From Thermodesulfobacteriota bacterium (lineage in GTDB: Bacteria; Desulfobacterota_D; UBA1144; Nemesobacterales; UBA2774): DNA of 64,000 nucleotides. The stretch is from the NCBI GenBank assembly GCA_965216785.1, contig OZ244197.1, positions 1,088,001-1,152,000 on the forward strand, written 5' to 3'. The notes under the pieces were generated by a model. The model worked only from the letters and a program-made list of their open reading frames with translations. It was not told the DNA's origin and did no database searches. The translations under genes were made by a program, and so were the position numbers. This document shows, piece after piece, positions 51,463 to 64,000 of this stretch (the first letter of the stretch is position 1; each line of letters opens with the position of its first letter).

Positions 51463-51586
51463 TTCTCCTCCTATTTACGCTTAAATAATGCTGCTTATGA
51501 TACCAATATAAGCATATATGTATTGAATTATCCTCCCTGCCTAATTAGAATTAGAATATCCCTCGTTTATTGCATAACGGCGCGCT

Positions 51587-52747
51587 ATGAAAATGCCTAA
51601 AGAAGGAATTCCCGGAGTCTATCACATAACTTACGGCGGCGGTTTTAAGGCCAAGCTCGGAGATTATTTAACGGAAGACGGGCACCTTGCCTGCTTTGAC
51701 ACTAAAGCCGAAGCAATAAGAGCAGTCCGAATGAGGCAGACTCATAATTTTGATTCCGAGGACTATGCTGTCGTTAGGGAAGGTAGTGGGTTCGCGGTAA
51801 GAAAGATTCATACCGTAAATGATCCGATTGCAGACGATATCGATACTTTGAAGGATCTTGATAGCGTGGTTCTATCCGATCAGGGTAAAACCGTAATCGC
51901 CTCTGTCATCGCTGACACTGGTGAAGTGAAGAATTTTCTCCCGCTTCCCAAATGGAAACAAGCCCGTGAAATAAATAGCGTAGAGGAAGTATGGGAGAGG
52001 CTTGAGGATATGCATGAAGAGCTCTCACACCGAGGGGACCACCGGGCCGTGTTCCCATGCAGCTACATTGCGACTACAAAGAAGGCGAGCGTCGTAATAG
52101 AATCGATCCGAAATAAAAATCACCCGGATCACCGAAAATTCAGAGAGCTCGATGACAACCTTATCGAAAATATAGTGATAGAGTTTGCAAAATTCTACTT
52201 TGAAGCTTTTGATAATTATGAAAGTGGGGAACGCTCAAAGGTGCCGCCCGTGTGGAGAGTTAATTTTGACGAAGCCAAGGCTCAGACTACTAGCGTGGTA
52301 GAGGATATGCTGCTTGGTTATAACGCTCATATGAGCTATGACCTTAGTATTATCCTCGCTAAAAAGCTTCCGGACGGAAAACCGCTTTATGACCCGGAGG
52401 ACTCAAAACAGGTAAATACTTTTAATGCGTTCAATCGTATATTAATAGAAGAGACGGATACGATAATAGGTTATGTAACGGAAATTGATGACAGGCTTGG
52501 AGGCAGATCGACCGAGGTAATAACATCGGGAAAGGCTATCGGCGTAAAGCTCCTTGGAGAAGGGGGGCTTGAGGATATGCTCCTAAAGCTCTTCTCAAAG
52601 GCGCGGGAGGAAGCCGAAGAAAACAGCAAAGCGCTTATGGAAGGCCGGATTACCCAGGAAGAGTTTGCAGAGAAAATCACTAAACGCGCCAGGGCAATTG
52701 GGCGGATGCTGCCCAATAGCGGCCGTATATTCGATAAAGAGAGCTAG
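51587..52747 (+). CDS. DUF5995-like protein with an extra N-terminal region
   Basis: D.RAVF..SY..TT, FA..YF.A, P.VW...F, LLG.NAH..YDL pattern. Confidence 0.6.
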   Translation: MKMPKEGIPGVYHITYGGGFKAKLGDYLTEDGHLACFDTKAEAIRAVRMRQTHNFDSEDYAVVREGSGFAVRKIHTVNDPIADDIDTLKDLDSVVLSDQGKTVIASVIADTGEVKNFLPLPKWKQAREINSVEEVWERLEDMHEELSHRGDHRAVFPCSYIATTKKASVVIESIRNKNHPDHRKFRELDDNLIENIVIEFAKFYFEAFDNYESGERSKVPPVWRVNFDEAKAQTTSVVEDMLLGYNAHMSYDLSIILAKKLPDGKPLYDPEDSKQVNTFNAFNRILIEETDTIIGYVTEIDDRLGGRSTEVITSGKAIGVKLLGEGGLEDMLLKLFSKAREEAEENSKALMEGRITQEEFAEKITKRARAIGRMLPNSGRIFDKES

Positions 52748-52769
52748 TTATAGATCACGAGAGCAAAAT

Positions 52770-54566
52770 ATGAATGCGGACAGCGAAAACTATTTAATTC
52801 CCATTGTGCTAGGCGTGTTGGCGGATAACGGCGTCGATGTCAACGATCAGATATTAGAGAAATTAATCACACCCCAGCTCGTTAAAATTAAAAATACATT
52901 TCCGAGCTCCCCGTTTTTCGTTATATCTCCCCTGGCTAATGATAAGGAGAGTCTGATAGCGCGTCTTGCCATAGACCGCTTGGATGCAGACATTGCAACA
53001 GCTTCTAAAGAGCCTGATGATAAACAGATCGAGATTTTTAAAATGGAACTTCAGAAAGGCGGTTACGCCCAATCTGATATTAAGAGGATAGGGCTGGCAA
53101 ATGAAGCGTCTAAAGGAAATAATCAAGTACTCAGTCCTTCAAAACTCACGGCCTCTCAATCTCAGATACTCATCGTGCTTAAAAACGGAGTAAAGGACAA
53201 AGCGCAGAGTGAAGTTGAAAGTGCCTTGGAGCTTAGAAATGAAGGGCGGTTCCACGAAATGTATTCCGGACGGGACAAAGATCAAAACACTTTAGATGCG
53301 CCGGATCTCGGACTCACTATCACGATCAACCCGGCGACATTTGATATTAGCACACAGATAACCCCGGTACAGGACGAGGCGCCGGAATCTCAAGAGCTGA
53401 AAAAAATAAATACGACATTTACCGAGAAGCTGTCTTTTGCTTTTAATAGGCATATTGAGCGCGTGACCGGGGTATTTGATAGATTCTATACCTCTTACAT
53501 CGAAATTCCGGATGACGGTGATAAGGACAGGCTTGCCAGATCGCCGTTTGTTGAAATCGCCGAGAAAATAGACGGCTATAATAAAGATGTTGCCGGTTTT
53601 ATAGAATCCAAAGGTGTCGAGACGGCACAACAATCCAAGGATTATTTACTTTCAGACGAGCGGGATAATCCAATTATATCGGAAGATCCCACCGTAGAGA
53701 AAATTATAGCTCCTTACAGCGGGGCCGATGTGCTTTCTCAGTTCTATCAAAAGAAAACCAACACTTATATAAACTGGATTTATATTCTTTTTTTCGCGGC
53801 TGTACTCCTATACGGAATTATCGATTTAAACTACTATCTGGTGCTGTGCTATATAGCCCTGATACCTGCGATCGCGTTTCTTGTGTACCGCTCTAAGGCT
53901 GAGAAAATCGAGGACAGATTCCTTGATTACAGGGCGCTTGCCGAGGGACTCAGGGTTATGGTGTTCTGGAGGATTGCCGGCATTGATGAGAGGGTCTCCG
54001 ACAACTATTTGAGTAAATACGCGGGCTTGGTTTCTTGGATAAGCCGCGCTATTAAGAATGTAGAGGTTGTCGGCCTTACAAATGGAGCAGGCCGTATAGA
54101 GAACAAAAAAGAGCGCGTAGAGATTACGAATAAACTGTGGATCGAATCACAGCTTGAGTACTATAGAAGGAAAAGAAATCCGCTCTATATGCGCTCTCTC
54201 GATCTGGGCAACCTGGCGCTTGTATCGTTCGTTCTCACACTCTTATTCGCGCTTTTGTTCGGCATATACCTTCTTTTTGCAGGTTTAGGCAACGACGGGG
54301 CGATAACAAGGTTTGAGGTTATGATAGGCGCTGCCGCCGCGATCGGTGTAGCCGCTCAGGCGTATAAGAGTAAAAAGGCGTATGACGAGCTTGAAAGACG
54401 CTATACTCTGACTCAGCATATATATATGTCCGCAAGTAAAAAGCTTAAGACGAACGCAGGCTCTCCGGACAGTATCCTCATTGCGGTAGGTAAAGAGGCG
54501 CTCCTTGAGAATAGCGACTGGCTCTGGACCCATAGGAATCTGCCGATCGAGCTGCCAAAGGGGTAG
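52770..54566 (+). CDS. Degenerate SLOG-like domain plus two 2TM SLATT-like (DUF4231-like) modules
   Basis: IPIVLGV, VISPLA, SQILIV align with the paralog downstream; AD.LS..YQ, FLDYRALAEGLR, WI.SQ..YY, E..DW; four hydrophobic segments. Confidence 0.65.
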   Translation: MNADSENYLIPIVLGVLADNGVDVNDQILEKLITPQLVKIKNTFPSSPFFVISPLANDKESLIARLAIDRLDADIATASKEPDDKQIEIFKMELQKGGYAQSDIKRIGLANEASKGNNQVLSPSKLTASQSQILIVLKNGVKDKAQSEVESALELRNEGRFHEMYSGRDKDQNTLDAPDLGLTITINPATFDISTQITPVQDEAPESQELKKINTTFTEKLSFAFNRHIERVTGVFDRFYTSYIEIPDDGDKDRLARSPFVEIAEKIDGYNKDVAGFIESKGVETAQQSKDYLLSDERDNPIISEDPTVEKIIAPYSGADVLSQFYQKKTNTYINWIYILFFAAVLLYGIIDLNYYLVLCYIALIPAIAFLVYRSKAEKIEDRFLDYRALAEGLRVMVFWRIAGIDERVSDNYLSKYAGLVSWISRAIKNVEVVGLTNGAGRIENKKERVEITNKLWIESQLEYYRRKRNPLYMRSLDLGNLALVSFVLTLLFALLFGIYLLFAGLGNDGAITRFEVMIGAAAAIGVAAQAYKSKKAYDELERRYTLTQHIYMSASKKLKTNAGSPDSILIAVGKEALLENSDWLWTHRNLPIELPKG

Positions 54567-54593
54567 GTAGAGAAAGAAAGGATTGAGTATTCA

Positions 54594-56387
54594 ATGAGTA
54601 AACAAATAAAAACGCCTCCGAAAGTTGCGCTTACGCTAAGAGTCGGCGTGACAGGTCACCGACCTCAAGGACTCGAAAGTTCGGACCTCCTATCACTCCG
54701 CTCAAAGCTGGATCATGTCCTTAGTGAGTTAAAACGAATTTTGCATGAGATCAATAATACTCCTAGCATGTACACGCCAGGGGATCCGCTGCTTAGAATT
54801 ATATCTCCACTAGCAGAAGGCGCCGATATGCTGGTCGCCGAGACTGCGCTGGAGAGCGGGTTTGAGCTGCAGTGCGCAATTCCCTTTGAAAGAGAAGAAT
54901 ATCAGAAGGATTTTCACAGTCCGGATTCGATACGCATGTACAGGGATATGCTGGAACGAGCAACGGCGGTTTTCGAGCTTAACGGCTCGCGCCGCACAAA
55001 GGCGCTTGAGAATGAGTCCTACCAGGCGGTGGGAAGGATGGTGCTCAACCAAAGCGATGTAATTATAGCCGTATGGGACGGAAAAGAGGCCAGGGGAAAA
55101 GGCGGGACCGGGCAGATCGTCAAAGAGGCAACGCAGCTTGAGATTCCCGTCATCTGGATAGATACGGCGCCTGAGCATGAGATACGCGTCCTTACGGGGA
55201 ATGAATACGGAACGAGTGAGGGAGAAGACCTGGATGGTCTCGACAGGAAGTTAAAACAACTGCTGGCGCCTAATAGCCTGAATGATGTTGAGATTAGAAA
55301 CGCTTATTTTGAAGAAACTCAGCCCCAAAGGTCTTGGGGGGTCATATTCGAGGTTTTTTGTGATTTCTTTTCAGGTGATAAGATAGACGCAAGCGGGGTA
55401 CATGTAAAAAACTTTGAGAAAAAGACGAGAGAAGAATGGCGGCACTCAAATGGCTATTCCGATGAGAATTCTCAGTCCGCTGAATTCCTCAATAATATGG
55501 AAGAGCAGGTGGACGAGAAACTTCTCCTTCATTACAGCTGGGCGGATAATCTGGCGAATTATTACTCAAACGTCTACAGGAGCTCTTTTGTCGGCAACTA
55601 TTTGTTGGCGGGGCTAGCCGTATTATTCGCACTATTAGCCGTAACTGTTCCCTCCTATGAAAAAGTATGGATTACAATAGAGCTGCTTATTATCGTATCG
55701 ATACTGGCTGTAACAAGAATCGGGAACCAAAGGAAATGGCACGAAAGGTGGATTGACTACAGGTTGTTATCAGAGGAGATAAGGCAGCTCAGGTTCCTGG
55801 CCCCGCTTGGATTAACGACCCCGGCGTTCAGGGTTCCCGCACACGATACTCACGGTGATCCCAGGAATACCTGGGTGAATTGGCATTTCAGAGCTATAGT
55901 GAGAAATCTGGGGATAATAACGGCAAGAATTAATAAGGAGTATCTGGAGTCCTACAGATCACTACTATCCGGGCGTGAAGTTAAGGGACAGATAGGATAC
56001 CACGATAAGAACTATCCGCGTTTCCATGAAATTCATAAAAGGCTCCATTACCTGGGTAATGCATTATTTGTCTTAACCTTCTTTGCAGTGCTTTTACATT
56101 TTTTGTTTTCCTCGGAGTGGCTTACTCTTTGCGCCGCGGTGTTTCCGGCCTTTGGAGCCGCGTTCTACGGGATCAGGACTCAGGGGGAGTTTGAGCAGAT
56201 TGCCAAGCGGTCCCGGGCAATGAGCGCTAAGCTAAAAGATATAAAGGAAGAGCTCGATAGTCCCAGCTTTACTCCGTCATATGGTGATATGTCTTTAATA
56301 GCAGAAAATACTGCAGAGATTATATCTTCGGAAACTCTTGATTGGAGAATTGTATTTCAGTCGAAAAGGTTGGTGTTGCCCGTATAA
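54594..56387 (+). CDS. SLOG (Smf/DprA-LOG) domain plus two 2TM SLATT-like modules
   Basis: VGVTGHR, ISPLAEGAD, IAVWDG...GKGGT, PVIWI; AD.LA..Y, W.DYRLLSE..R, Q..YH, E..DW; four TMs. Confidence 0.78.
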   Translation: MSKQIKTPPKVALTLRVGVTGHRPQGLESSDLLSLRSKLDHVLSELKRILHEINNTPSMYTPGDPLLRIISPLAEGADMLVAETALESGFELQCAIPFEREEYQKDFHSPDSIRMYRDMLERATAVFELNGSRRTKALENESYQAVGRMVLNQSDVIIAVWDGKEARGKGGTGQIVKEATQLEIPVIWIDTAPEHEIRVLTGNEYGTSEGEDLDGLDRKLKQLLAPNSLNDVEIRNAYFEETQPQRSWGVIFEVFCDFFSGDKIDASGVHVKNFEKKTREEWRHSNGYSDENSQSAEFLNNMEEQVDEKLLLHYSWADNLANYYSNVYRSSFVGNYLLAGLAVLFALLAVTVPSYEKVWITIELLIIVSILAVTRIGNQRKWHERWIDYRLLSEEIRQLRFLAPLGLTTPAFRVPAHDTHGDPRNTWVNWHFRAIVRNLGIITARINKEYLESYRSLLSGREVKGQIGYHDKNYPRFHEIHKRLHYLGNALFVLTFFAVLLHFLFSSEWLTLCAAVFPAFGAAFYGIRTQGEFEQIAKRSRAMSAKLKDIKEELDSPSFTPSYGDMSLIAENTAEIISSETLDWRIVFQSKRLVLPV

Positions 56388-56429
56388 TCAATCGCTGATA
56401 TAATCCTGATTTAGTTATTGTTTAGGTAG

Positions 56430-57743
56430 ATGGGAACAAAAATGGCACACGACGTATTCATAAGTCACTCGGGAAAAGATAAGACTGTTGCAGACGCCGT
56501 CTGCGCGACGTTGGAAAGAGGCGGTACCCGGTGCTGGATTGCGCCTAGGGACATAGTGCCCGGCACACAGTGGGGCGAGGCCATTATCGACGCCATAAGT
56601 CACTGTAAGGTGATGGTGCTCGTTTTTTCCTCTAACGCAAACGAATCGCAGCAAATTGTTCGTGAGGTCGAAAGGGCAGTCAATAAAGGCATACCCGTTA
56701 TACCCTTTCGGGTCGAAGACGTAGACCCGAATAAGTCGCTTGAATACTACATCAGCGCCCCTCACTGGCTCGATGCACTGACACCCCCGCTTGAAAAACA
56801 CATTGAGCAGCTTAACTCAACTATTAAGCTTCTCCTTTCCAAGCAGGAAGCGGCGGCTGGACCAACTGAGACCATACGGAGCGAGCCTGAACCCACTCAA
56901 ACTGAAACCGATATTCGTAGTGATAAAATCGAGACCATACGTGAACCATATCAGGATAAAGGAGGGCGTAAACAAGGTTTTAATCCAAAGTTAATTGGAG
57001 GCGGTATTGCTGTGTTGCTGCTCATCATTATAGGGTTTTTAGTGTTCTCTGGTGATGAAGGCGATAATTTCGGCACGAATGACGATGTAATAACTACTGA
57101 ACATGATACTTTTACAGATGACGGCAAGATGTGGGGAGCGCTTGCTCTCACCCCTAGCGGCGGATGGGGATTCGCGACGAATCAGCCCTCAAAGCGTGCG
57201 GCTGAGCAAGAAGCCATGGTAAAGTGCAGCAGTCAGAACCCTGACTGTGAGCTGAAGATATCATTTGATAACTGCATGGTCTACGCAAGGGCCGCGGACA
57301 GGACTACGGCCTGGGGGACTCATGAAAATATCGATACGGCAAGGGAGGCGGCTGTGAGTAAGTGTCACGAGTTCACTGCCGACACGTGCGGCTCGCACGT
57401 CGAGCTCTGTGCGGATGGGAGCGTGAAGAGGGTAAACGTATGGGGAGCAATCGCTACCGCTGACGAAGGTAAGCACGGAGAGTCTTGGAATTATCCCACC
57501 AGGGCGGAAGCAGAAGCTGCGGCCTTAGAGGAGTGCCAAAAAGAAGGACCCAACTGTTTGCTCAGAACGTCTTTTACCAATTGTGCCGCTGTAGCCAGGG
57601 GGGATGACGGCGCTCTAGGATGGGCCAATTACAATTACATGGACGATGCCGTAAACGCTGCCTATAAAGAATGTGAAAAGCGGAGTAAGGAAGAATGCCG
57701 CCTACTCATAAAGATCTGCGCCAACGGCAAAGAAGACAACTAA
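56430..57743 (+). CDS. TIR domain, single TM, and two DUF4189-like extracytoplasmic repeats
   Basis: DVFISHS..D, CWIAPRDI.PG, I..AI, S..ANES....REV (catalytic Glu), IPFR, WLDA; TM LIGGGIAVLLLIIIGFLVF; two 103-aa six-Cys repeats starting WGA(L/I)A. Confidence 0.85.
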   Translation: MGTKMAHDVFISHSGKDKTVADAVCATLERGGTRCWIAPRDIVPGTQWGEAIIDAISHCKVMVLVFSSNANESQQIVREVERAVNKGIPVIPFRVEDVDPNKSLEYYISAPHWLDALTPPLEKHIEQLNSTIKLLLSKQEAAAGPTETIRSEPEPTQTETDIRSDKIETIREPYQDKGGRKQGFNPKLIGGGIAVLLLIIIGFLVFSGDEGDNFGTNDDVITTEHDTFTDDGKMWGALALTPSGGWGFATNQPSKRAAEQEAMVKCSSQNPDCELKISFDNCMVYARAADRTTAWGTHENIDTAREAAVSKCHEFTADTCGSHVELCADGSVKRVNVWGAIATADEGKHGESWNYPTRAEAEAAALEECQKEGPNCLLRTSFTNCAAVARGDDGALGWANYNYMDDAVNAAYKECEKRSKEECRLLIKICANGKEDN

Positions 57744-61092: not shown

Positions 61093-61701
61093 TTGGCTAA
61101 TACTAAAGGGACAGTATCGTATATGAACGGCAGACCAAAAGTGCTTTTTTCATGGAGCGGAGGTAAAGACAGTGCACTTGCTCTATATGAAATTCTCAAT
61201 TCCGGGGCATATGAGATTGAATCATTGATCACAACCGTGACGGTTGATTACGGCAGGGTAAGCATGCACGGATTCAGGACCGAGCTTCTTCACACTCAAG
61301 CCGGCTCTTTGAACATTCCGCTTGAAGAGGTTTATATTTCAAAGGACGCTTCAAACGAGGAGTATGAGTACAGTCTGACGGATACGCTTTCAAAGTACCG
61401 TGAAGAGGGGGTTAACAAAGTGGTGTTCGGGGACATCTTTCTACAGGATATTAAAGAGTACCGGGAGGCCCTCTTATCCGGCATAGGAATGGAATGCGTG
61501 TTTCCTATCTGGAAGAGGGACAGCTCGTTACTCGCCCGGAACTTTATTGAAGAGGGGTTTCGTGCGGTTATCGTATGTGTGGATACAGAGCAGCTGGACG
61601 CTTCTTTTTCAGGCCGGGAGTTTGATGAGAGTTTTCTTTCGGACCTGCCCTCAGGAGTCGATCCGTGCGGAGAAAACGGGGAGTTCCATACTTTTGTTTA
61701 A
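61093..61701 (+). pseudogene. Diphthine-ammonia ligase (Dph6)-like PP-loop ATPase, 3'-truncated by an element insertion
   Basis: SWSGGKDS, RVSMHG, VFGDIFL, DPCGENGEFHTFV then an immediate stop; about 33 aa shorter than the homolog at 61837-62508; base composition shifts at the stop. Real start is probably ATG 61123. Confidence 0.8.
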
Positions 61702-61836
61702 GTAATGGTGTAACTCGCTAATTATACTGAACTATCTATTAAAAAATCATACCACATAATGATGAATTTAGCAAGCTGTTTTTTCAATCTTTAGGATATA
61801 ATATTTTAGATCATCATGACATGTCTTTGCTAGAGA

Positions 61837-62508
61837 TTAAGACGAGAAAATGTCACAGTAATAAAAACGTTCATCCCGTAAGACTATTTCGCCTAATCTG
61901 TGTTCGATTGGATTATTGAAGATCGGGCCATCGTAGGTGAAGGTATGAAATTCTCCGTTCTCTCCACAGGGATCAATTCCTGATGGAAGGTCATTCAAAA
62001 ACTGTTTATCGAATTCTCTTCCAACAAATTGCCCATCCAACTGGCTAGAATCAACACATACTATCACTGCTTTGAACCCAGTATCAATAAAGTTTTGAGC
62101 TAATTTAGCAGTATCTAATTTCCAAATTGGAAACAAACACTTCATCTCAATTTGTCCAAGAAGTGTTTCTCGATATTTCTTTATATCTTCTAGAAACAAA
62201 TCGCCAAATACCACCTGGCTAATACCGACCTCTTTAAATTTGTTTAGAACATCAATAAATCTATTTTCATATTCATCATTAGCAGCATTCTTCGAAATTA
62301 GAACCTTTTCAAGCGGAATATTCAAAGACTCCGCCTGTTGCTCGAGTAAATCAGTGCGTAAACCATGTATGCTGACTCTATCAAAATCACTCGTCACAGT
62401 AGTTATAAGAGATATAATTTCATATTTCCCGTTTTTTTGAATCTCATGTAGTGCTAAAGAGCTGTCCTTACCACCACTCCAGGAGAGTACTAAGGGCAAT
62501 TTTTTCAT
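61837..62508 (-). CDS. Full-length Dph6-like PP-loop ATPase carried by the element
   Basis: SWSGGKDS, RVSIHG, VFGDLFL, DPCGENGEFHTFTYDGPIF, FYYCD; AT-rich codons; 5 bp downstream of the recombinase stop. Confidence 0.9.
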   Translation of the reverse strand: MKKLPLVLSWSGGKDSSLALHEIQKNGKYEIISLITTVTSDFDRVSIHGLRTDLLEQQAESLNIPLEKVLISKNAANDEYENRFIDVLNKFKEVGISQVVFGDLFLEDIKKYRETLLGQIEMKCLFPIWKLDTAKLAQNFIDTGFKAVIVCVDSSQLDGQFVGREFDKQFLNDLPSGIDPCGENGEFHTFTYDGPIFNNPIEHRLGEIVLRDERFYYCDIFSS

Positions 62509-62513
62509 CTAAA

Positions 62514-64000
62514 TTAATCCTGTATATCTATATAATCTTCCAGATACAAAGCGCCCCCATGCCCATGTAGCTCGAGGTTTCTAAATTTATATCTCAGCTT
62601 TTTTATATATTTACTTTTCATGAGCTGTATGATTCCAGGTTCTACTTCATCGTACTCTACATATTTATCTTGTAGTGGATATACCCTTATCCATTCAAAA
62701 ATATTTTGTATTTCATGCCTTAGCTGCAATCTTAGCTTAGCAAGTTCTTGGTCATCTTTAGCAGATTCTAGAAAGTTATATGCTTCCTTTATATTGTCTT
62801 TTTGTTTTAAAAATCTGTTCCTTTGGTCAACTAAATCTTTTATTTCCTGTCCAAGGCTTTTGTTTTTGATAAGCAATTTTTGTTTAGCTGTTCGTTTTTC
62901 TGTAACTTCTTTGTCATATATTTTCTTATTCTCTTCGTCATCTGTAATACTGATTGTTTGTAGTAAATTTTTAATCTGAGAATCCAGATCATTTAGTATA
63001 AAATTGTTCTCTGATATTATTTGTTCTTTTTCTTTCTTAAGCTTTGTCGTTTCATCTTCATCTGGTAATAGTTTGTTAATATCCAGTTCATCAAAATTCT
63101 CAAAGAATATCCTCTCAAATTCATTGTAACGTACTGACTTAGCTGTACAAACCATGTCTCTTCTACTAACTTCTAAATCCGGTATTTTTCGACGGTTTAA
63201 TTTAGCTGCAATCTTTGCATCAATTTGTTTTTGATCTTTTTTTATGTCTATTGAAACTTTATTTTTTCGTCTTCTGCTATCACAAATAAGGTATTGAACT
63301 CCTTTATCCACAAACTGCATTGAGCTTCCACATATACCACATTTAACAACATGTGAAAACAAGTTATTCCCTTTATCCTTATTACCTCCTCCACCACCAT
63401 TGCCAGGGAATTTACTATTTTGTCGAATAAGCTCTTGTACCCTGTAAAATAAACCTTCTTCAATTACCTTTGGATAGTAATCTTTTATGGGGTCACCTTT
63501 CGCAACAGGTAATTCCCTTTCTTCCTCGTTACCGTTTTTGATGATCGTTTTAGTTTTCATTTCATGTGGCTGGTATTCTCCGATTAATTTCCTATTTTTA
63601 AGTATTTTGCTTATGTATGCATCGCGCCAACCGCCAGACTTGTTTCTAGAACTTTTAGGTGGTTTCCAAACGTCTGGATCAGCATTTAGTTCTTTTTCGA
63701 TCTTATAACTCCCTTTGCCTTCGAGTCTTTTTTGAAAAATTAATTCTATTGCTTTACATGCTTTCTCTATTGGAACAAATTCAGGTTTGTCAGCCGATAA
63801 TTTAAGCCAGAGAGGACATTTAGCACTATATATTCTTAGTTCTTTTTTACGTAATTTCTCCCTTTTTTCTTCTAATGCTTCTCTTATACGTTTTGATTTT
63901 TTTAAAGATTCATTGTGAGCTGCAGTCATTAAGTAAATACTATTAGTAAGTAGATTTGAATTCTTATTGATACTGCTTCTGTCGTATTCCTGATCATCTT
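62514..64000 (-). CDS. Large serine recombinase/integrase (catalytic N-terminus outside window)
   Basis: Frame is open to the window end (..DDQEYDRSS..IYLMTAAHNESLKKSKRI); P.WL, W....I.KILKNR..IG, DYYPKVI, NLFS..VKCGICG and C...R...C zinc ribbon, coiled-coil tail. Confidence 0.88.
   Translation of the reverse strand, partial: DDQEYDRSSINKNSNLLTNSIYLMTAAHNESLKKSKRIREALEEKREKLRKKELRIYSAKCPLWLKLSADKPEFVPIEKACKAIELIFQKRLEGKGSYKIEKELNADPDVWKPPKSSRNKSGGWRDAYISKILKNRKLIGEYQPHEMKTKTIIKNGNEEERELPVAKGDPIKDYYPKVIEEGLFYRVQELIRQNSKFPGNGGGGGNKDKGNNLFSHVVKCGICGSSMQFVDKGVQYLICDSRRRKNKVSIDIKKDQKQIDAKIAAKLNRRKIPDLEVSRRDMVCTAKSVRYNEFERIFFENFDELDINKLLPDEDETTKLKKEKEQIISENNFILNDLDSQIKNLLQTISITDDEENKKIYDKEVTEKRTAKQKLLIKNKSLGQEIKDLVDQRNRFLKQKDNIKEAYNFLESAKDDQELAKLRLQLRHEIQNIFEWIRVYPLQDKYVEYDEVEPGIIQLMKSKYIKKLRYKFRNLELHGHGGALYLEDYIDIQD

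Follow-up and report, generated by a model that had tools for sequence, protein, structure and literature searches.

A conserved three-gene module combining a predicted membrane-anchored TIR receptor with paired SLOG-SLATT proteins in two genera of Thermodesulfobacteriota

Animal Toll-like receptors are single-pass proteins with a cytoplasmic TIR domain, and TRPM2 is an ADP-ribose-gated channel carrying a SLOG-fold region. In bacteria, fusions of SLOG and SLATT domains were reportedly predicted by Burroughs et al. in 2015. Here, we analyze a locus that brings such domains together in a Thermodesulfobacteriota bacterium (assembly GCA_965216785.1). It lies in a stretch of 64,000 nucleotides of contig OZ244197.1 (positions 1,088,001 to 1,152,000), called the window hereafter, to which all positions refer unless another sequence is named. 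The locus comprises four genes, A to D, of which B and C encode related SLOG-SLATT-type membrane proteins and D a TIR protein with a predicted membrane anchor.

Several described systems share parts of this arrangement. The TIR protein of Thoeris systems makes a messenger during phage infection; this product is read by a SLOG domain in Thoeris I, type III also has SLOG effectors, and type VII, which combines a TIR protein with the SLATT effector ThsH and uses canonical cyclic ADP-ribose (cADPR), provides defence (bioRxiv 10.64898/2025.12.03.692087). SLATT domains are predicted to be membrane effectors regulated by ADP-ribose derivatives or responsive to nucleotides (PMC9503650; PMC7159879), and both papers cite the SLOG-SLATT prediction. 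The predicted PCTM and receptor-like TIR-ParA systems include a type II protein with a single transmembrane segment (TM) and a variable periplasmic sensor, together with a SLATT gene, and are proposed to sense periplasmic perturbation (bioRxiv 10.64898/2026.10.19.760177). As for the sensor part of D, DUF4189 is a broadly distributed scaffold: XAC2611, the only periplasmic DUF4189 protein characterised so far, binds VirB5, the tip protein of a type IV secretion system (T4SS), and both Tpf and VirB5 are highly variable (bioRxiv 10.64898/2026.05.09.723464).

We propose, with about an even chance of being right, that B, C and D constitute an outside-in module consisting of a receptor, a messenger and a membrane effector. 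The joint presence and loss of C and D, the link between the C family and TIR genes, an invariant glutamate in D and near-invariant pocket motifs in C support this reading.

Conservation of the B-C-D block

The four genes are all located on the forward strand with gaps of 22, 27 and 42 bp, as described in the first-pass annotation, and each is present in one copy in the genome (tblastn). They encode proteins of 386 (A, 51587-52747), 598 (B, 52770-54566), 597 (C, 54594-56387) and 437 amino acids (D, 56430-57743), the orthologues of D beginning at a methionine that corresponds to position 56442.

Among 120 genomes of the phylum, orthologues of C were found in 12, i.e. all three genomes of genus g1 (this genome included) and nine of the ten genomes of genus g2. 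Full-length D is encoded by the same 12 genomes, in one case split over two contigs. Wherever the contigs reach far enough, the order is B-C-D with the same flanking genes (DUF3568 lipoprotein; DUF3108, DAACS transporter). B runs into contig ends in three genomes and is N-terminally shortened in G077, and matches to C that are more distant or broken were found in three genomes of another family. In seven of seven non-carriers examined, the flanking genes are adjacent and leave no room for the block. Furthermore, G074 retains a broken 3' fragment of D only, at the same site (E 2.5e-13), which indicates that B, C and D were deleted together there. B-C-D is therefore a real, conserved three-gene module in two genera. 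A tree of the flanking genes, based on patchy data (673-2325 residues per genome), groups g1 with g4 (70%) and g2 with g7 (100%); this fits either an ancestral block lost several times or a transfer into the same site.

Gene A, which encodes a DUF5995 protein (Pfam E 1.9e-29; only DUF5995 clusters, 0.84-0.85, in an ESM Atlas search), had been counted as a member of the system, a view that its distribution contradicts. It was detected in three of 33 genomes of the family and is intact in g1, while remnants of it lie upstream of B in seven of seven g2 loci examined (six by blastn, E 1e-9 to 8e-6; one by tblastn, E 1e-4). From these short remnants, A decayed in g2 while B-C-D stayed. A was thus rejected as a core part: it is an accessory gene and the core is B-C-D. 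A cytochrome P450 gene (50107-51462), co-oriented and located 124 bp upstream of A, is found at this site only in g1.

Two promoter-like elements, both on the forward strand, were found in the block. The first one (TTGAAT-17-TAGAAT, 51523-51551) lies upstream of A in a segment (51521..51569) that is kept in six of seven g2 carrier loci despite the decay of A (blastn, E 3e-5 to 0.004) and that probably drives A-B-C(-D). The second one (TTGCCC-17-TATAAT, 56376..56404, 10/12 match) overlaps the end of C, its -35 part being under coding constraint and its -10 part intergenic; retained in 11 of 12 sequences, in both genera, it is a possible internal promoter for D. The scan for promoters and terminators gave no enrichment over shuffles (14 vs 11.0 +/- 2.9; 6 vs 7.8). 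A separate promoter for D would suit genes that are mere neighbors without functional coupling; so would the accessory status of A and of the P450 gene, which share the orientation of the block here. We regard this explanation as very improbable, since B-C-D was kept while A decayed and was deleted together in G074, and since 11 of 26 independent clusters of the C family have a TIR link (see below).

The presence of a LolA gene in the window indicates that the host is diderm, and the named relatives found (three of three) are Candidatus Dadabacteria. Two further features lie downstream of the block. Two facing paralogues of a diphthamide-synthase-like ATPase occupy 61093-62508, the copy on the forward strand having a shorter C-terminus. 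A serine recombinase located at a drop of the GC content to 33% opens an island (62514-64000 of the window and G000:C1:1150514-1164038) that includes a second TIR protein (334 amino acids) and, as judged by eye, a large methylase-like open reading frame and an integrase-like one. This is a candidate defence island, unrelated to B-C-D.

Domains of the D, C and B proteins

D comprises a TIR domain (residues ~6-136; Pfam TIR_2, E 2e-22), a linker, one hydrophobic segment (residues 188-206) and two copies of DUF4189 (E 7.9e-38, 129 bits) with 12 cysteines. NCBIfam gives matches far below cut-off, and PADLOC gives weak generic TIR matches and no ThsA. In all 22 D orthologues, a single TM follows the TIR domain, the 12 cysteines lie beyond it, and lysine and arginine are more frequent before it than after. 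These features predict a cytoplasmic TIR domain and a disulfide-bonded periplasmic part. D is thus predicted to be a type II membrane receptor with a periplasmic sensor, which is the topology suggested at first pass. Its ectodomain matches the solved DUF4189 protein Rv1813c (PDB 7nhz, E 1.8e-7). Stand-alone DUF4189 proteins of ~140-165 amino acids are encoded by 11 genomes of the family (G069, G070, G073, G075, G077, G092-G097).

All cyclase TIRs analysed carry an aromatic residue four positions before the catalytic glutamate (Glu-4), a conservation that is less strict in TIRs that produce ADP-ribose or are inactive (bioRxiv 10.1101/2022.05.07.491051). In D, the catalytic Glu79 aligns with the glutamate of neighboring TIRs. 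All 119 of 119 D homologues have it, while position 75 is a glutamine in 116 of them, giving QxxxE instead of WxxxE. In view of Gln75 and of the absence of the Glu-4 aromatic, we predict that D produces linear ADP-ribose, or else hardly any product. D thus keeps the catalytic residue of the TIR signalling put forward at first pass, but a cyclic product of the Thoeris type is unlikely.

As a non-cyclising TIR would yield linear ADP-ribose in the manner of NAD+-depleting effector TIRs, D could also be the effector itself. Clustering induced by a ligand would then make it an NAD+-depleting toxin, B and C acting as a regulator or as a second line responding to ADP-ribose as a by-product. According to a caution in the Thoeris survey, the TIRs of certain two-gene operons may be effectors (bioRxiv 10.64898/2025.12.03.692087); related TIR-TM proteins occur without C in three g2 genomes, and D possibly has its own promoter. 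However, none of the 120 genomes carries a full-length D without C, the two being lost together, and SLATT is the predicted or shown effector elsewhere (bioRxiv 10.64898/2025.12.03.692087; PMC9503650; PMC7159879), so that we hold this alternative to be rather unlikely.

The TIR clade of D is large, with 3708 matches among 7999 candidates scored. Of the listed non-orthologous homologues of D (P0398-P0495), 86 of 98 have a predicted TM according to a simple hydropathy rule. Their ectodomains include TPR, WD40, ankyrin, LRR, PDZ, PPC, YARHG and others, most of the 48 scanned being devoid of an ectodomain family. This clade of TIR-TM-ectodomain proteins, in which QxxxE is near-invariant and the outside domains are interchangeable, is a candidate family of bacterial Toll-like receptors.

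C carries two SLATT hairpins (~332-376 and ~487-527). These hairpins had been proposed earlier and are borne out by scores above the SLATT_1 cut-offs of both Pfam (29 vs 26.3 bits) and NCBIfam (NF033634, 64.8 vs 41 bits, in two stretches). By contrast, the Pfam SLATT_1 score of B is below cut-off. The Pfam SLOG models, including YpsA (PF06908), do not match the N-termini of B or C (17.7 vs 27.7 for a relative, P0253), and a PDB sequence search with a C profile gave weak, implausible matches only. Therefore, the assignment of the N-terminus of C to SLOG rests on structure. For C, modelled with AlphaFold2 from 81 sequences (pLDDT 92.4), the best match is YpsA (2nx2; Foldseek E 6.5e-4). In a wide structural search, YpsA came first again (VIA Z 16.9, root-mean-square deviation 2.5, 159 residues aligned), followed by DprA (Z 13.4), TRPM2 (Z 8.2) and the SLOG of ThsA (Z 7.9); LOG proteins are also among the closest folds. 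The match to TRPM2 covers the SLOG fold only (root-mean-square deviation 3.5, 158 aligned). The predicted N-terminal SLOG fold thus holds, and its TRPM/ThsA character stands at superfamily level only, the closest relative of the modelled domain being YpsA; contexts of the YpsA clade have been described (PMC6459960).

Proximity to YpsA, DprA and LOG proteins leaves room for a C that acts as an N-glycosidase of the LOG/YpsA type. It would convert or destroy the TIR product, and SLATT, instead of forming a lethal pore, would bind the nucleotide once processed or export it. Viral YpsA-like SLOGs have been proposed to degrade cADPR-type signals (PMC9503650), the SLATT protein of type VII was modelled with its own cytoplasmic ligand pockets (bioRxiv 10.64898/2025.12.03.692087), and no part of B is better conserved than its SLATT region. 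Phage relatives also match the SLOG region of C only (best 80 of 142 viral matches). The SLOG domains of ThsA, on the other hand, act as sensors (bioRxiv 10.1101/2022.05.07.491051), and we find an enzymatic role for C quite improbable. Many large phage contigs (L141-L220) encode small proteins of this SLOG-only kind, in line with the proposed viral SLOGs (PMC9503650); carriage of the full C protein by phages was considered and rejected, as the best 80 viral matches are confined to that region.

B and C were described at first pass as two SLOG-4TM proteins. They are indeed homologous over their full length, their families aligning end to end over 538 columns (hhalign probability 100, E 6e-57), and the model of B (pLDDT 85.7), which was searched with Foldseek only, likewise has YpsA (2nx2) as its top match, although a weak one (E 0.013). 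They are not equivalent, however. Motifs were counted in the 81 aligned sequences of the 120 homologues listed for each family. In C, the pocket motifs (GVTGHR, SPLAEGAD, AVWDG and GGT in this genome) are near-invariant, the SLOG motifs being found overall in 74-81 of 81 aligned members (GxTGHR in 75, SxLAEGAD in 77 and WDG in 74). In B orthologues, GxTGHR, SxLAEGAD and WDG were each found in none of 24 sequences, whereas the non-orthologous members of the B family keep them in 49, 52 and 55 of 57, respectively. B nevertheless retains two SLATT-like hairpins (~336-374 and ~482-533), and its identity between genera is 26% in the SLOG part vs 57-62% in the TM regions. Ratios of nonsynonymous to synonymous substitution rates (dN/dS), which are rough estimates within g2 (5-6 sequences, dS near saturation), reach 0.22 for the SLOG and 0.07 for the TM part of B, 0.15 and 0.10 for those of C, and 0.01 and 0.05 for the TIR and DUF4189 parts of D, the DUF4189 sensor being under strong purifying selection. 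The loss of motifs, the kept TM part and these ratios indicate that B is maintained as a membrane protein, while its SLOG has lost the pocket and is relaxed. From sequences and models, C is the predicted ligand-sensing subunit and B its predicted non-sensing partner, which probably sets the stoichiometry or raises the gating threshold. A predicted complex of C with residues 230-598 of B had a score of 0.17 (mark 0.32) and was used neither for nor against their assembly.

That the pocket-less SLOG of B is still under purifying selection would also make sense if it were a dock. Clustered D would then activate B and C by direct contact, its TIR domain being a scaffold with weak or no enzymatic activity. 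B, C and D are all membrane-bound, D lacks the Glu-4 aromatic, and its TIR is 90% identical between genera vs 57% for the SLOG of C, which goes beyond the needs of catalysis alone. Against this stand the invariance of Glu79 and the intact nucleotide pocket of C. Moreover, TIRs of this clade are just as conserved when joined to many other, unrelated ectodomains, and soluble TIRs also accompany the C family. We therefore consider gating by contact unlikely, while granting it a modest chance.

TIR partners of the C family and the predicted pathway

The C family is very large (4369 representatives at E <= 1e-30), and its metagenomic loci were surveyed through the best 80 of 516 matches, many of them with short flanks. 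A TIR gene lies within 3 kb in 30 of these 80 loci (294 kb surveyed) vs one locus at 3-7 kb (221 kb). Considering only loci with both flanks of at least 3 kb, 12 of 22 are TIR-linked. The 26 clusters mentioned above were defined at 50% identity; 11 of them include such a locus, and eight of these 11 are TIR-linked. Independent links also exist: a TIR-TPR gene lies directly upstream of a B-type gene in G015, and on a Caballeronia plasmid a C-type gene is followed by a TIR gene. The link between TIR and SLOG-SLATT genes that had been anticipated is thus general, both in these loci and in the 12 of 120 genomes that share C and D. The anticipated pairing of SLOG-SLATT genes beside a TM-TIR is not, as tandem B and C occur in one of 80 metagenomic loci and the pair is largely lineage-specific.

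The typical order in the dominant clade is TIR-TPR, a small unknown gene and SLOG-4TM. Other partners are SIR2-like-TIR with STAND-TPR, TIR-WD40, TIR-NB-ARC-WD40, TIR-receiver, TrkA_N, RyR, FGE-sulfatase and cyclase/TPR-S proteins. In several partner proteins, the TIR domain is likewise followed by a hydrophobic segment free of charges, though weaker than that of D. Some of these arrangements deserve a mention in their own right. In L053:3343-7901, L061:3709-8788 and related loci, the TIR-TPR (~715 amino acids), the small gene and SLOG-4TM recur as a block; the small gene matches no Pfam family, ends in a DP-x-x-x-N-like motif and has 27 related, highly variable copies. This block is possibly a separate system with a variable specificity protein. 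A TrkA_N protein (~683 amino acids) directly follows the C-family gene in L085 and L088-L091, and a stand-alone RyR-domain gene precedes it in L056:6617-6982, which suggests regulation of an ion-channel type in other lineages. In L048:1987-8030 and L049:8900-15812, the C-family gene is followed by SIR2-like-TIR and nSTAND1-TPR NTPase genes. In family f2 (L044:5188-9039, L043:2-3087, L045:7127-9789), an intact B-type SLOG-4TM is found at a different site, downstream of a TIR-TPR or TPR gene; in G013, this gene is in pieces.

The pathway that we infer, from the topology of D to its NADase activity and product, ligand binding by C, assembly of B with C, pore function and trigger, would operate as follows. 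An envelope cue would bind the predicted periplasmic DUF4189 pair of D and cluster it. Since the activity of AbTir depends on TIR assembly (bioRxiv 10.1101/2022.05.07.491051), clustering would likely switch on the cytoplasmic TIR, which would cleave NAD+ into linear ADP-ribose. This product would bind the SLOG domain of C and a predicted hetero-oligomeric SLATT pore of B and C would open.

Several observations weigh against this pathway or against its use in defence. In 50 of the 80 C-family loci, many of them short-flanked, no TIR was found within 3 kb; one clade accounts for 43 of the 80 loci and for 19 of the 30 TIR-linked ones, and the TIR profile was seeded from the surveyed loci themselves. 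The TrkA_N, RyR, FGE-sulfatase or cyclase neighbors indicate that the C family is not dedicated to TIRs. Furthermore, 23 of 31 TIRs beside other C-family genes have a tryptophan at Glu-4, which makes D atypical and ADP-ribose an extrapolated ligand for C, and a non-aromatic Glu-4 also occurs in inactive TIRs. The TM part of C gave generic helical matches only (Z <= 7.4) in the wide search, which was dominated by SLOG; with no clear match to a solved structure, the word 'pore' rests on the SLATT annotation. D may moreover have its own promoter. As regards defence, the GC content of the locus (44-48%) matches that of the genome, the PADLOC matches of 12 flanking proteins are of sigma-factor type only, the block is long-retained at a fixed site among housekeeping genes, and the dN/dS of the sensor (0.05) is unlike the highly variable Tpf/VirB5 pairs. 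The B-C-D site also shows no enrichment beside known defence genes, the entry criterion of the Thoeris survey. A recent horizontal island was rejected on the basis of this GC content and of conserved synteny.

We slightly favor, as the purpose of the module, a defence that would end in depolarisation or dormancy and be directed against an attacker that penetrates the envelope (secretion-system pilus, phage tail or predator); non-lethal signalling of envelope stress is nearly as probable. PF03135 (VirB4 family), the one family queried in this respect, has no match in the genome, so that kin exclusion by an own T4SS was rejected. Together with the conservation of the sensor of D, this makes a ligand that is conserved, or a stress cue from the cell's own envelope, at least as plausible as a T4SS tip. 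A more specific proposal is that the TIR-TM clade represents bacterial Toll-like receptors with interchangeable outside sensors and that the receptor of this lineage detects, in the periplasm, the pilus tip of an attacker's secretion system; the ADP-ribose that it makes would open a heteromeric channel gated by SLOG. Taken as a whole, we deem this proposal unlikely. If true, it would represent a logic running from Toll-like receptor to TRPM2, with contact-dependent attack or conjugation as its target and not the replication of phages.

If a TIR domain is connected through the inner membrane with a sensor in the periplasm, nucleotide signalling by TIRs would extend to the perception of outside cues, which is the task of animal Toll-like receptors. 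The locus supplies a co-inherited candidate effector, which such receptors usually lack, making the pathway testable with three genes, and it offers a testable function for both the uncharacterised SLOG-double-SLATT family and the TIR-TM-ectodomain clade. Moreover, the pairing of an intact SLOG with a pseudo-SLOG amounts to a natural experiment on how heteromers are gated, and a sharp prediction follows from QxxxE, namely that the product is linear ADP-ribose.

Comparison with known systems

A full-text literature search (titles and starts of abstracts, few subscription papers) returned no description of TIR-TM-DUF4189 with SLOG-SLATT, nor of a tandem of intact and degenerate SLOGs coupled to such a receptor, and the available parts of PMC13434031, PMC13276650 and PMC8195603 do not describe this arrangement. 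Pairs of TIR and SLOG-SLATT may already be listed in the supplements of Burroughs 2015 or in Table S1/Figure 1C of the Thoeris survey (29 types).

Thoeris VII resembles the module in having a TIR with a catalytic glutamate beside a SLATT membrane protein and in its logic of a nucleotide-gated membrane effector. However, the TIR of D is predicted to be membrane-anchored, with a periplasmic sensor, lacks the cyclase aromatic and is not located in a defence island. Furthermore, the effector here carries two hairpins and an additional SLOG head, and it is present as a pair of one intact and one pseudo-SLOG protein. In Thoeris I (ThsB TIR, 3'cADPR and the SIR2-SLOG protein ThsA), a SLOG domain reads the TIR product, as predicted here, but the SLOG of C is YpsA-like (Z 16.9 vs 7.9 for ThsA), the predicted output is at the membrane, and QxxxE argues against 3'cADPR; neither B nor C matches SIR2 or ThsA in Pfam, NCBIfam or PADLOC. 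More generally, the Glu-4 aromatic of the cyclase TIRs of types I, V, VI and VII, which use cyclic messengers, is replaced by Gln75 in D. No Macro match corresponding to the TM-Macro effector of Thoeris II was found with Pfam, the N-terminal fold of C being SLOG. As for Thoeris III, D scores 18.9 bits vs a cut-off of 220 with the ThcB4-type TIR model (NF058526), and DprA, which represents its SMF/DprA-type SLOG effector (PMC13276650), comes second to YpsA for C (Z 13.4 vs 16.9).

Outside Thoeris, the very large family with SLOG and double SLATT of which B and C are members, often adjacent to TIR genes, falls among the predicted SLOG-SLATT fusions. Like the PCTM receptors, D is a predicted single-TM type II protein with a periplasmic domain, coupled to a SLATT gene. 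The cytoplasmic domain of the PCTM receptor is, however, a ParA NTPase, whereas that of D is the TIR itself, without a ParA match in Pfam, and the effector here has a SLOG sensor. The DUF4189 copies of D share six cysteines and a predicted periplasmic location with Tpf/XAC2611 and Rv1813c. Tpf, in contrast, is soluble, has a signal peptide, is highly variable and is encoded in T4SS loci, while the two copies of D are fused to TM-TIR and well conserved. The likeness to animal Toll-like receptors and TRPM2, i.e. a single-pass TIR receptor and a SLOG-bearing predicted channel, is one of analogy: D has the opposite polarity (N-terminal TIR), another ectodomain and a likely enzymatic TIR, and the TRPM2 match stops at the SLOG fold, the TM part having no such match. 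B-C-D is hence a variant of TIR-to-SLOG/SLATT signalling that lies outside the Thoeris types tested, and it is distinctive in its receptor topology, its DUF4189 sensor, its intact/pseudo SLOG pair and its non-cyclase TIR.

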